DNA of 10,661 bases from a virus (taxonomy: Duplodnaviria; Heunggongvirae; Uroviricota; Caudoviricetes): IMG/VR virus record IMGVR_UViG_2703718674_000018; one strand, written 5' to 3'. The notes beneath the pieces are model-generated. The model saw only the letters and a list, made by a program, of their open reading frames with translations, ran no database searches and had not been told where the DNA came from. This document shows, one piece after another, positions 1,532 through 7,593 of the stretch (positions are counted from its first letter, which is position 1; every line of letters starts with the position of its first letter). A program made the position numbers and the translations under genes.

Positions 1532-1741
1532 TTAATTTGAATACAATGCAATTCTCGAGGACTGAAGTTTCTCGCAATTAAAATTTATCAGTTTTACTTT
1601 CTGCTCTCTGGAAACGCCTGCTTCTTTTTTACCTGAGAGCATTTTTTCGCATTCTGATTTCGTTAGTTTAGATTTTGAATATCTTGTCCAGTTAGTAGGA
1701 GTGCCACCTTCCTTTTCAATAGTGGCGGTAATTTTATACAT
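1532..1741 (-). CDS. rcbA: Small Rac-prophage protein YdaC/RcbA-like, 69 aa
   Basis: ATG at 1741..1739 preceded by strong SD (GGAGGTG, 5-nt spacer) gives MYKITATIEKEGG... (69 aa); stop at 1532. Upstream ATGs at 1753 and 1813 lack an SD. Start overlaps the ralR stop by 8 nt (translational coupling). Confidence 0.65.
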   Translation of the reverse strand: MYKITATIEKEGGTPTNWTRYSKSKLTKSECEKMLSGKKEAGVSREQKVKLINFNCEKLQSSRIALYSN

Positions 1742-1928
1742 GAACACCTCCATTATTATTTCCAGTGGTTCGTTTATTCCATCTTTCGAGTGCTTCTTTT
1801 TCACTTCCACCATAACCGGTTCGGGATTCGCATCCGTTACACTTCGCTCGGTAATATCCTGAAATGGCTTTCACCGTTACTGATGGACAACCACAAAATG
1901 GACATGGTTTAACATTGTCATATCTCAT
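1734..1928 (-). CDS. ralR: Restriction-alleviation protein Lar/RalR, 64 aa; Cys4 zinc-ribbon (CPFCG...CNGC)
   Basis: Translation MRYDNVKPCPFCGCPSVTVKAISGYYRAKCNGCESRTGYGGSEKEALERWNKRTTGNNNGGVHV has two CxxC pairs typical of the Lar family. ATG at 1928; alternative in-frame ATGs at 1940 and 1967, so the start is uncertain. TAA stop at 1736..1734. Confidence 0.75.
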   Translation of the reverse strand: MRYDNVKPCPFCGCPSVTVKAISGYYRAKCNGCESRTGYGGSEKEALERWNKRTTGNNNGGVHV

Positions 1929-5462: not shown

Positions 5463-5570
5463 TGTTTTTTAACCTCAACTCAGATTAAAATTCGTTTTGT
5501 TCAGTGAATGATCTTGCCGGATACACACTGTTCATAGCCTGCGTATGGCGCAGGCTATTTCTTTCAGATT

Positions 5571-5840
5571 TCACCGCCTAATTTCATTGCAATCAGAGTT
5601 GCCAGAAATTCGGCTTTTTTTTCTGCGGGCAGATTCTTTCCTATGTGCACCAGACACATTTTTTTTAACACCATCGTTAAGTGTTTTAACGTTGCCTGAT
5701 GGACCGTCGATATCAACCACAGTGAATGGGGTTTCTTTATTTTCTGTCTTAATCACGTAGCCAATACGCTTTCCTTCCAGGGTAACTTCGTGAACAATGT
5801 CATCAGTAGTAACAACAGTGGCTTCATAACTGGTAATCAT
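5571..5840 (-). CDS. racC: RacC-like small protein; frame as sequenced gives 89 aa with an Arg/Ser-rich tail (possible frameshift at A8 run)
   Basis: ATG at 5840 preceded by TAAGGAG (5-nt spacer). N-terminal 60 aa (MITSYEATVVTTDDIVHEV...GPSGNVKTLNDGVKK) look like RacC as I remember it. After the A8 run (plus-strand T8 at 5659-5666) the frame encodes NVSGAHRKESARRKKSRISGNSDCNEIRR; see findings. Confidence 0.6.
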   Translation of the reverse strand: MITSYEATVVTTDDIVHEVTLEGKRIGYVIKTENKETPFTVVDIDGPSGNVKTLNDGVKKNVSGAHRKESARRKKSRISGNSDCNEIRR

Positions 5841-5914
5841 GTTTTTCTCCTTAATTAAGGTTGAGCGAATCCCTGCCATTGCTGGCATAAATTCAGTTTC
5901 GGATAGTCAGTTAA

Positions 5915-6085
5915 TTAAAGTTCGTGTGCCATCTGGTCTTTTTCGGCACAGATTTCACTACAATATTTTTTCATTTCCGTCGTTGGTATAACTCCACGCA
6001 TGAAATGAAGTGGTCTTGTAATGATTTTGCTTTCTTCAATTTCTTTATTGCAAAGGTGATAAGCACATTTTATTTTCTTAGTCAT
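5915..6085 (-). CDS. ydaE: YdaE-like Cys/His-rich small protein, 56 aa (putative metal-binding)
   Basis: Not in the ORF track (below its length cutoff). Manual translation of the minus strand from ATG 6085..6083 gives [56 protein letters not shown], stop TAA at 5917..5915. Start overlaps the kilR stop by 1 nt (TAATG). Length matches the 56 aa I recall for Rac ydaE. Confidence 0.65.
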   Translation of the reverse strand: MTKKIKCAYHLCNKEIEESKIITRPLHFMRGVIPTTEMKKYCSEICAEKDQMAHEL

Positions 6086-6306
6086 TACCATGACTCCGCC
6101 TTTACAGGTAAACCATCACGACCGAGGAAGACTCTAATCATGCAGTCAGAAATGCATGTTTTTGTAGTCAGGCTACGAATATAAAGTTTTCGCTTTTTAA
6201 TATTGTTTGCCGAGGCGATATATGTCCGACCTTCATGAAGAACATAATCGCCAGGAGTCACACACTGACGTGGTATTTCATCAGTTCCGAAGTGATGAGC
6301 AATCAT
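6085..6306 (-). CDS. kilR: KilR-like cell-division inhibitor, 73 aa
   Basis: ATG at 6306 preceded by GGAG (6-nt spacer); the ORF-track start at 6318 (MEIIM...) lacks an SD. Translation [73 protein letters not shown], 73 aa. Function by recollection of Rac KilR as an FtsZ inhibitor. Confidence 0.75.
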
Positions 6307-6471
6307 AATTATCTCCATTTTTACAAATGAATTTTGTCGATGCGGTGCCTGGTGCCTCCAGGTGACGTTAACCAGTTAACAATTAACGCCGGATAATCCA
6401 CCCATAACACTGATGCTTTTAACTGTGCCGCGTGCGCTTAGCCGCATTCACCGCATCACAAAATTCACTTT

Positions 6472-6515
6472 AAAAAGGGGCGGCAGGGCAGCCACGGAGT
6501 AGAACTGATGCCGCC
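6472..6515 (-). terminator. Candidate intrinsic terminator inside the leftward operon (tL-like), minus strand
   Basis: Minus-strand RNA would form a 7-bp GC stem (plus-strand GGCGGCA 6479-6485 pairing with TGCCGCC 6509-6515), followed by CC and then UUUUUAAA (plus-strand A5 at 6472-6476). The loop is long (23 nt), so this is weak. Confidence 0.3.
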
Positions 6516-6714
6516 AAAGACTACACATAGCAATGTCGTTATTTACAACCGGAGGCGCACTCCCACCATTTAAATTTAACAGACAAGACCGACTCTTTAT
6601 GGATACCGGAAATGCGCCTTCGTGTTGTGCCCGGTTTTATTTCACCACCTCCGGGCTTTGGTGGCCTCGGCTATACCCCTACAGCAAGAATATTGAATTA
6701 ATCCAATAAATGGT

Positions 6715-6867
6715 TTAGCTGGTATTTTTGGCAAGCCAGCGACGTGCGCCAGCTTCGGTTTTAAACGATTTGCTTTTGGTATACGTCATGGCGGTGAATG
6801 TGCCGTCCTGATTGGGAAACACGCCACATACCAGAGATTCGTTGTTGCCAAGATCGATAGTATCCAT
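6715..6867 (-). CDS. Small protein, 50 aa, YdaF-like (first gene of the leftward operon)
   Basis: ATG at 6867 preceded by GAGG (about 6 nt) gives MDTIDLGNNESLVCGVFPNQDGTFTAMTYTKSKSFKTEAGARRWLAKNTS (50 aa); the ORF-track version starts with TTG at 6930. Assignment to ydaF is by position and vague recollection only. Confidence 0.5.
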   Translation of the reverse strand: MDTIDLGNNESLVCGVFPNQDGTFTAMTYTKSKSFKTEAGARRWLAKNTS

Positions 6868-7047
6868 GTTGACCTCATTTCCCCTTAACGCCGGGTGGCG
6901 GAACGTTTTATCTACTGCGCTTTGTATCAATCAACAACTGCCGTCATGTTCGTATGCCTCAGGCTGGCTACTTAGCCCTGTTCAGTGGCTGGATAACTCG
7001 AGGTATTGTCCTGCCGTTCTCTGGTGGGGCGTTGTTTGGATATGCTT

Positions 7048-7089
7048 ATTAAACACAATGCGTTTTCTTGTATCAACACGAAATGTGTT
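7048..7089 (-). promoter_or_regulatory. Candidate leftward early promoter (PL-like) with overlapping operator-like palindromes
   Basis: Minus strand reads TTGATA (plus 7071-7076), a 17-nt spacer, then TTTAAT (plus 7048-7053), close to the sigma70 consensus TTGACA-N17-TATAAT. Palindrome AACAC-GAAAT-GTGTT (7075-7089) overlaps the -35; imperfect AACAC-AATGC-GTTTT (7052-7066) overlaps the -10. Confidence 0.4.
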
Positions 7090-7118: not shown

Positions 7119-7143
7119 AAAAAAAGCCCGCTGATAGCGGGCT
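7119..7143 (-). terminator. Rho-independent terminator downstream of the repressor gene
   Basis: Plus strand AAAAAAA-GCCCGC-TGATA-GCGGGC-T; on the minus strand this is a 7-bp GC-rich stem (AGCCCGC/GCGGGCU) with 5-nt loop followed by UUUUUUU, about 30 nt after the repressor stop (7174). Confidence 0.65.
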
Positions 7144-7173: not shown

Positions 7174-7593
7174 TTACTCCGGTGGGGGATTATCTTTAAG
7201 CCTGCCTCTCAAATATTTTTCTACATACTCATCGATTTCTTTTAGCCGGACTTCAAATAGCTCAATCATTCGTTGTTGTTCTGAGCCCGGTAGCTGGTTA
7301 AACAACTCAAGAAGTTTTCGTTGGGATTCATTTAACCACAATTCAGAAGATTCCTGTTCTCCAAAGAGGAGCTCAGGAGGAGATATGCCAAGTGCCTTTC
7401 CCAATACGACAGCGTCATGCACTCCAACATTTCTGCTACCCGCCTCATAGTTACCTATACGCGATTGCGTCCATCCGCAGATTTCAGCAAGTTTTCCTTG
7501 AGATAAACCAAGCTTCTGCCTGCGCTCTTTAAGACGCATTGCAATTTTGTCATTGAGCCTACTAGCGGCAATTTTTTCGTTTTCTTTTTCCAT
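7174..7593 (-). CDS. Prophage repressor, XRE-family HTH, 139 aa (cI/RacR analogue; no LexA-type cleavage motif recognised)
   Basis: ATG at 7593 preceded by AAGGA. HTH region LKERRQKLGLSQGKLAEICGWTQSRIGNYEAGSRNVGVHDAVVLGKALGISPPELL. Divergent from the Cro-like gene across a 96-bp operator region and followed by a terminator. Confidence 0.8.
   Translation of the reverse strand: MEKENEKIAASRLNDKIAMRLKERRQKLGLSQGKLAEICGWTQSRIGNYEAGSRNVGVHDAVVLGKALGISPPELLFGEQESSELWLNESQRKLLELFNQLPGSEQQRMIELFEVRLKEIDEYVEKYLRGRLKDNPPPE

Follow-up and report, generated by a model that had tools for sequence, protein, structure and literature searches.

A DicF/KilS-family small RNA gene and a conserved kilR leader in a mosaic spacer without sieB of a Rac-like prophage

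The IMG/VR record IMGVR_UViG_2703718674_000018 (10,661 nucleotides (nt), hereafter the window) is a Rac-like lambdoid prophage adjoining ttcA. Its leftward early operon contains a non-coding segment between a DUF1391 gene and the cell-division inhibitor gene kilR (positions 6307–6714, minus strand). We conclude with high confidence that this segment is a regulatory RNA spacer, made up of a small RNA (sRNA) gene of the DicF/KilS family, its terminator and a conserved kilR leader, in a mosaic allele without sieB. The case rests directly on family membership, homology, mosaic structure, a conserved fold and complementarity to ftsZ. The sRNA, terminator and leader were already known as elements; the mosaic allele without sieB is new. 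An initial annotation of this DNA had proposed an antitermination or terminator module, a processed non-coding RNA (ncRNA) or a deletion scar, and had suggested comparison with K-12 Rac, a covariance-model search, folding of both strands and a search for compensatory changes among relatives. All of these analyses were carried out.

The whole window was searched with Rfam at gathering thresholds, which gave two matches, RalA and DicF, and a second time at a permissive threshold. The DicF model (RF00039) was matched over its full length (1–52) on the minus strand of the segment, with 60.9 bits against a gathering score of 48 and an E-value of 1e-11. The processed ncRNA or terminator considered initially was thus essentially the right choice. 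The sRNA core folds into a hairpin (−17.0 kcal/mol) with a CCCCUUUUU tail, which is also matched by the terminator scan, and is preceded by a single-stranded 5′ region, as the DicF family requires. The inverted repeat GGCGGCA-N23-TGCCGCC with its minus-strand U-run, noticed in the initial annotation and called tL-like, is present and does form a terminator, namely the intrinsic one of a DicF-family sRNA, whose body it also makes up. Folding of the minus strand from 6290 to 6720 gave −148.9 kcal/mol, compared with −124.2 ± 5.7 kcal/mol for dinucleotide shuffles (z = −4.3; 0 of 100 shuffles as good), and the plus strand gave z = −3.5. The segment had therefore rightly been called structured. It is not GC-rich, as had also been claimed: its GC content is 47.2% versus 46.9% for the window, and only the kilR/ydaE side (39.6%) is poorer in GC.

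Two related loci are annotated in E. coli K-12. The Rac prophage harbours the ncRNA gene kilS (b4833) at the corresponding place, between kilR and sieB, and the Qin prophage harbours dicF between ydfC and dicB. KilS was found by RNA interaction by ligation and sequencing (RIL-seq) as a 98-nt Hfq-dependent RNA in the kilR 5′ untranslated region, verified by northern blot and accumulating in stationary phase (Bar et al. 2021, PMC8175672). Transcription start site data support an independent KilS promoter, probably its own (Bar et al. 2021, PMC8175672). DicF is made by termination plus RNase E and RNase III processing (PMC9438474). Hfq dependence, RNase E processing of the 5′ end and RNase III processing of the 3′ end are known for K-12 DicF/KilS (PMC9438474, PMC8175672). 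Because K-12 KilS scores 39.1 bits on the DicF model, it is, judged by sequence, a diverged member of the DicF family. In the window the operon context is DUF1391 gene, sRNA, leader and kilR, inside a lambdoid prophage early operon, and the GGAG-GCGCA-CTCC repeat reported initially at 6551–6563 is indeed there and corresponds to the 5′ stem-loop of a KilS-type transcript. The putative extended −10 element ahead of this stem-loop (Table 1) is absent from the output of the strict promoter scan.

The minus strand of the window was then aligned to K-12 Rac and Qin and identity was computed block by block. From 6680 down to about 6521 the window is Rac-type, with 95–100% identity to Rac and roughly 30–55% to Qin. 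The terminator hairpin (6481–6500) is Qin-type, with an identity of 0.92 to Qin and 0.29 to Rac, as is the central leader (6401–6420; 0.80 to Qin, 0.50 to Rac). The last 20 nt and kilR are again Rac-type (1.00 to Rac in the 6301–6320 block, 0.37 to Qin). Hairpin and central leader excepted, the segment aligns collinearly to the sieB-kilS-kilR spacer of K-12 Rac, with 95–100% identity. Collinearity with Qin dicF-dicB extends from the hairpin as far as the start codon. Since a Qin-type hairpin and central leader are enclosed by Rac-type flanks, the window allele is, on this alignment, a recombinant carrying a Qin-type patch in a Rac-type backbone. Outside the segment, the DUF1391 gene and its upstream sequence (6715–6908) share more identity with Qin ydfA (90.4%) than with Rac ydaF (83.1%), which looks like a further sign of Rac/Qin mosaicism.

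The mosaic allele shares with K-12 Rac KilS the type of prophage and the position, and its promoter region with the −10, its 5′ hairpin and its upstream block are identical to those of KilS. The two seeds differ little: the first 73 nt of the query (window 6503–6575) are 95.9% identical. In contrast, a DicF-type hairpin replaces the KilS-type hairpin GGCGGCAUCAGUUUUUUUCUUGAAGUUCGGCUGAUGUCCGCC, the central leader is Qin-like, the seed carries one G-to-A change and no sieB is found upstream. With Qin DicF the window allele has in common an Rfam score above the gathering score, the terminator-hairpin architecture, the U-run, the leader, a DUF1391 gene upstream, a cell-division inhibitor gene downstream and a 3′ half complementary to the ftsZ ribosome-binding region. 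It differs from Qin DicF in the first 12 nt of the 53-nt core (UAUGUGUAGUCU versus UUUCUGGUGACG), and all upstream sequence is unrelated. The window also lacks ydfB, ydfC and the 340-nt ydfC-dicF spacer, and kilR, not dicB, is located downstream. Its hairpin carries four substitutions, one of which, read by eye, converts a G-U pair with ftsZ to G-C.

We scanned IMG/VR for the leader word AAAGTGAATTTTGTGATG and obtained at least 120 loci; what is said below of hairpins, leaders and gene combinations holds among the matches listed. Several types of terminator hairpin occur upstream of the leader, and 28 of 28 distinct variants keep a GC-rich stem based on GGCGG/CCGCC and a T-run. Their stems display double compensatory changes, such as GGUGGCA/UGCCACC and GGCGGAA/UUCCGCC. 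Across an alignment of 68 distinct leaders, the 5′ and 3′ parts hardly vary and the centre is hypervariable; RNAalifold predicts for them a long closing helix that encloses three hairpins. In the window, the minimum free energy (MFE) fold of the leader has −64.3 kcal/mol and a closing helix of 28 bp with two bulges. Variation in this helix is nearly all wobble-compatible (G-C to G-U in 24, 21 and 2 sequences, C-G to U-G in 9), and pairing is broken in just one or two cases. Five sequences have double changes in the inner hairpin at 6364–6390 (G-C to U-A and U-A to G-C). Another inner hairpin is the CCTGG-N5-CCAGG repeat seen initially, whose start had been placed one base off, at 6349 instead of 6348.

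A 72-nt DicF species is cut by RNase III from the full-length transcript (PMC9438474). The 19 nt that it extends beyond the 53-nt end would place the cut midway along the 18-bp core helix, at about 6458 in the window. Because this end falls within the helix, we infer that the closing helix is the RNase III site that parts the sRNA from the dicB/kilR mRNA. Cleavage would probably also alter kilR translation or stability, since the 3′ arm abuts the Shine-Dalgarno sequence.

The 3′ region of DicF has been shown experimentally to repress ftsZ by pairing with its ribosome-binding site, and the 5′ end acts on xylR (PMC5069750). In the window allele, the loop and 3′ half of the terminator hairpin are complementary to the ftsZ ribosome-binding region. 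Duplexes predicted with whole-length sRNAs were non-discriminating (p = 0.14–0.9), and the prediction was redone with the 3′ halves alone, against ftsZ −35 to +6. The window allele then gave −29.0 kcal/mol (shuffles −18.8 ± 3.5; p = 0.006), K-12 DicF −27.9 kcal/mol (p = 0.008) and K-12 KilS −25.9 kcal/mol (p = 0.09). As the duplex energy of its 3′ half is comparable to that of K-12 DicF, the mosaic allele should keep the activity on ftsZ. Conversely, the 5′ seed of Qin DicF should be lost, because the first 12 nt differ, and the window allele probably does not act on targets that DicF reaches through its 5′ end (xylR).

Upstream of the sRNA start, a block of about 100 nt (6567–6672) is conserved in loci with differing flanks. 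The GCCCGG-N16-CCGGGC repeat, correctly located at 6629–6656 in the initial annotation, is part of a candidate H-type pseudoknot with which this block opens on its 5′ side. By a per-sequence stem search, a second sequence type retains both pseudoknot stems with other bases; the candidate has no Rfam match. On this thin support, the block may form a pseudoknot.

These elements suggest how the spacer could work. The sRNA, probably of Hfq type, could be produced by two routes: in the lysogen from an extended −10 promoter of its own, as reported for K-12 KilS, or from the long operon transcript, which would end at the sRNA hairpin and have its 5′ end trimmed by RNase E. The terminator would also serve as an attenuator ahead of the toxic kilR gene. 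K-12 kilR is silenced by NusG/Rho and expressed through read-through (PMC5793797), and the sRNA terminator would be an obvious intrinsic barrier ahead of it. Transcripts that read through would form the leader, whose helix of about 28 bp pairs the tail of the terminator with nucleotides immediately ahead of the kilR Shine-Dalgarno sequence. An RNase III cut in this helix would free the sRNA from the mRNA of kilR and remodel the region where kilR translation starts.

Several observations weigh against this interpretation. Transcript ends, promoter use and RNase E/RNase III processing of the window allele are all borrowed from the K-12 homologues, and the effect on kilR is likewise deduced. The U-run of the sRNA has just 5 U, as in K-12 DicF. 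In the MFE structure of the complete 431-nt transcript, the terminator hairpin gives way to a pairing of its 5′ arm with 6656–6679, so that termination efficiency in the long transcript of the window allele is uncertain. Covariation in the closing helix is mostly of the wobble type, seldom double; as its 5′ arm was fixed by the search word, the sample could not capture double changes in this helix. Finally, the leader matches its closest Rfam model, STnc100, below the gathering score, and the first 12 nt of the 53-nt core are not those of Qin DicF.

The STnc100 match raises the possibility that the leader (about 6299–6488) is itself a stable base-pairing sRNA of STnc100/PasD type, excised by RNase III on both helix arms, which would be compatible with the DicF/KilS reading of the spacer. 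At the permissive threshold STnc100 (RF02076) is matched at 6299–6488 on the minus strand with 44.3 bits (gathering score 47; E = 5e-8), and the leader aligns across the 206-position model, including the closing helix GGUG…CACC and the CCNGGAGGCACCNGG hairpin. K-12 Qin and two IMG/VR loci score 34.4–46.2 bits. STnc100 and PasD have been reported as prophage sRNAs with seed regions (bioRxiv 10.64898/2026.05.13.724894), and near-invariant ends around a hypervariable centre would also suit such an RNA. However, the score stays under the gathering score in every copy tested, and no stable RNA from the leader interval is reported in the literature consulted. In nearly all sampled loci the leader sits directly ahead of a division-inhibitor gene (kilR or dicB), and its 3′ arm abuts the Shine-Dalgarno sequence, which argues for a role in cis. 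A reported STnc100 copy is placed differently, downstream of the stx2 operon (PMC12370729). We consider a separate leader sRNA rather unlikely. An antitermination module, either nut- or put-like or an antiterminator/terminator switch, governing how far a pL-type transcript reaches into kilR, recE and recT, is a poorer candidate still. The operon does contain a real intrinsic terminator, K-12 kilR is controlled by read-through and Rho/NusG (PMC5793797), and a 24-nt stretch (6656–6679) is complementary over a long range to the terminator 5′ arm (6496–6519) on the minus strand, with −25.3 kcal/mol and z = −3.9. This pairing supplants the terminator in the full-length MFE fold of the window allele, where it might raise read-through. 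Yet it is missing in relatives with the same hairpin (loci L118, L137 and L165, z about 0.1–0.6) and in K-12 (z = 0.17), and we rejected it as a conserved antiterminator because it is specific to the mosaic allele. No boxA-like site occurs on the minus strand of 6307–6714, and the whole window has 9 matches versus 8.2 expected by chance (boxB was not searched separately). Nut- or put-like Rfam matches are absent from the window. A Rho loading site was also tried and rejected, the minus-strand transcript of the segment having no rut-like, C-rich and G-poor (C>G) stretch. The antitermination option of the initial annotation thus finds no backing in conserved elements, and we regard it as improbable.

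Two further explanations were considered. The initial annotation was correct in stating that K-12 Rac carries sieB at this position, as the K-12 annotation confirms (between kilS and ydaF), and the window has no sieB, which could make the segment a decayed remnant or deletion scar without a function of its own. In the blastn comparison, homology to K-12 Rac skips a stretch of 554 bp, which contains sieB and, by eye, a plausible sieB promoter, and no sieB similarity is left in the segment. A tblastn search with K-12 SieB at E ≤ 10 gave no match in 6307–6714, its sole matches lying elsewhere in the window with E ≥ 5. The missing stretch is one clean block, the remainder being 95–100% identical to K-12 Rac, and versions with and without sieB occur around the same conserved block. 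These comparisons indicate that sieB is cleanly absent, not degraded, and refute the scar hypothesis as an account of the segment. A hidden small protein gene is also very improbable. The gap had been placed at 6319–6714; it is real, but its boundary was wrong, since kilR starts at 6306, not 6318, and the true gap is 6307–6714. The longest ATG-initiated frames in it had been put at 21–36 codons. The open reading frame (ORF) list contains one of 58 codons, at 6533–6709 on the plus strand, which has an ATG start, stays open in several near-identical relatives and overlaps the sRNA in antisense. It has neither a Shine-Dalgarno sequence nor a Pfam match, its frame is shifted by indels or truncated in relatives L038, L116 and L118, L026 has GTG in place of ATG plus a further change, and its C-terminus varies with the flank present. 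The view that the gap holds no credible gene therefore stands.

The KilS-type seed of the window (6515–6544, minus strand) is identical to nt 50–79 of RprA, a core-genome sRNA of K-12, at 27 of 30 positions, an alignment score reached by 0 of 3000 shuffles. K-12 KilS (L002, 4406–4503, minus strand) and RprA (L124, 373–478) match at 24 of 26 positions, including an exact 16-mer. The Rfam match of the seed to RprA (RF00034) is weak, with 30.5 bits versus a gathering score of 70 (E = 0.28). The likeness covers the conserved single-stranded stretch located right before the RprA terminator, whereas the 5′ hairpins of RprA and most of its rpoS-pairing region have no counterpart and the terminator is another one. 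Within the shared stretch lies the RprA sequence that can pair with −98 to −86 of the csgD 5′ untranslated region, just upstream of SL1, where a review places one RprA site on csgD (PMC4152358). In KilS variants of the L057/L131 type the perfect csgD complement is lengthened to 16 nt. In the window, the G-to-A change produces a central mismatch to csgD; mosaic alleles have G, A or U there. Neither DicF nor RprA is named in the KilS paper (PMC8175672), and the literature searched yielded no paper joining KilS with RprA or with DicF. An Rfam E-value scan of three loci with other seed types revealed no imitation of a core sRNA. We tentatively propose, as a possibility short of an even chance, that DicF-family sRNAs are built as modules with two seeds, and that recombination between resident prophages exchanges the two halves. 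KilS-type 5′ seeds, that of the window among them, would have been copied from RprA and would allow the prophage to repress RprA targets such as csgD and dgcM (curli and biofilm), the DicF-type 3′ half would repress ftsZ, and the mosaic allele would combine both upstream of the FtsZ inhibitor KilR.

Of 5426 complete E. coli genomes, 86 contain the full mosaic sRNA at a coverage of 80% or more. Another 1,650 or so match the KilS-type 5′ part only, among them typical O157:H7 strains and K-12 derivatives. Parts of the kilR-leader-DUF1391 region are present in 4648 genomes, at a median of two and a maximum of twelve places per genome. Phage genome records also contain the cassette, including those of Rac-SA53, vB_EcoS phages, mEp460, Evi and Shiga toxin (Stx) phages. 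Melson and Kendall reportedly described, in 2019, four dicF copies in enterohaemorrhagic E. coli (EHEC). In IMG/VR, the seeds upstream of the invariant leader start are of DicF type, KilS type, CCAUGUUGAUUACC type, CCAUGUGUAGUC type and others. DicB or KilR is encoded after the leader in nearly all loci; a third small ORF also occurs at this place. All combinations of seed, hairpin and flank are seen, such as DicF-type sRNAs before kilR and KilS-type sRNAs before dicB, with or without sieB, ydfB and ydfC. The third class of gene is a small ORF beginning MLNVAIEN…, after a leader ending in TTCACTTCGGTGATGAAAGG (loci L006, L034, L054, L064, L074, L092 and others). In L006, matches to isrK and C4 antisense RNA lie just downstream of this ORF.

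The stretch from 6100 to 6950 of the window is 100% identical to E. coli O157 493/89 and two further strains, and 99.9% identical to O55:H7 CB9615. On the identical O157 493/89 locus, RefSeq lists in order intR, xisR, rcbA, ralR, recT, recE and a frameshifted ORF, followed by the genes given in Table 1, and no feature between kilR and the DUF1391 gene.

Table 1. Coordinates of the predicted RNA elements and neighbouring genes in the window.
Feature	Positions	Strand	Basis or remarks
Non-coding spacer of the leftward early operon, DUF1391 gene to kilR	6307–6714	minus	RefSeq of O157 493/89 locus and ORF list
Candidate H-type pseudoknot: S1 GCCACC/GGUGGU, S2 GCCCGG/CCGGGC, A-rich third loop	6629–6664	minus	5′ edge of block 6567–6672
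Putative own promoter, extended −10 TGTTAAATT	6573–6581	minus	Read from sequence; 7 nt upstream of KilS-type start; identical in K-12 Rac
Predicted primary sRNA (~95 nt), KilS-type start G to U-run	6472–6566	minus	Collinear with K-12 kilS (b4833); 5′ end placed by homology
5′ stem-loop of KilS-type transcript, GGGAGUGCGCCUCC	6551–6564	minus	Same sequence as 5′ end of K-12 KilS
Single-stranded 5′ seed, KilS-type, RprA-like, AAAUAACGACAUUGCUAUGUGUAGUCUUUG	6515–6544	minus	
DicF-family sRNA core, equivalent of 53-nt DicF	6478–6529	minus	Rfam RF00039
Intrinsic terminator hairpin, DicF-type, then CCCC-UUUUU	6479–6515; U-run 6472–6476	minus	Fold and terminator scan
Conserved structured kilR 5′ leader (~165 nt), shared with dicB leaders, STnc100-like	6307–6471	minus	Rac/Qin alignment, RNAalifold
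5′ arm of closing helix: terminator U-run and AAAGUGAAUUUUGUGAUGCGGUG	6449–6476	minus	MFE fold, inverted repeat
Leader inner hairpins	6430–6445; 6364–6390; 6348–6362	minus	
3′ arm of closing helix, CACCGCAUCGACAAAAUUCAUUUGUAAAAA	6318–6347	minus	Ends one base 5′ of kilR Shine-Dalgarno sequence
kilR Shine-Dalgarno sequence, GGAG	6313–6316	minus	
Junction in place of the K-12 Rac sieB stretch	6690–6735		blastn: K-12 Rac homology 5801–6689, resumes at 6736
ydaE	5915–6085		RefSeq
kil/kilR	6085–6306	minus	RefSeq; start codon 6304–6306
DUF1391 gene	6715–6867	minus	RefSeq; Pfam DUF1391, E = 3.5e-29
Helix-turn-helix (HTH) repressor gene	7174–7593	minus	RefSeq
ydaS/ydaT-type genes	beyond the repressor gene	rightward	RefSeq

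Some features of the window outside the spacer were also recorded. The ORF at 5564–5840 (minus strand), at the racC position of K-12 Rac in the recE-ydaE interval, is entered in the identical RefSeq record as a pseudogene, a hypothetical protein with a frameshift. RalA, the antitoxin sRNA of the RalR/RalA type I toxin-antitoxin pair, was matched at 1557–1735 on the plus strand with 225 bits versus a gathering score of 170. This match overlies the annotated rcbA and ralR genes (1532–1928, minus strand), where RefSeq gives coding sequence features only. A pL-type promoter, TTGATA-17-TTTAAT, was read by eye at 7048–7076 on the minus strand, downstream of the terminator of the repressor gene (7125–7143). 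The strict promoter scan missed it because of the T at position 2 of the −10. The palindrome AACACatttcGTGTT, likely an operator, overlaps its −35.

Taken together, Qin DicF, Rac KilS and the dicB/kilR leader, formerly described separately, are tied together here as one mobile cassette, composed of an sRNA, an RNase III-type leader and a cell-division inhibitor, whose seed, hairpin and effector gene are reshuffled among lambdoid prophages. As for annotation, a DicF-family sRNA scoring above the Rfam gathering score has been left blank in the RefSeq records examined, where no annotated feature lies under the sRNA match among the matches listed. Should the RprA-like seed prove functional, mimicry of a core sRNA could give prophages influence over the curli/biofilm circuit of their host.

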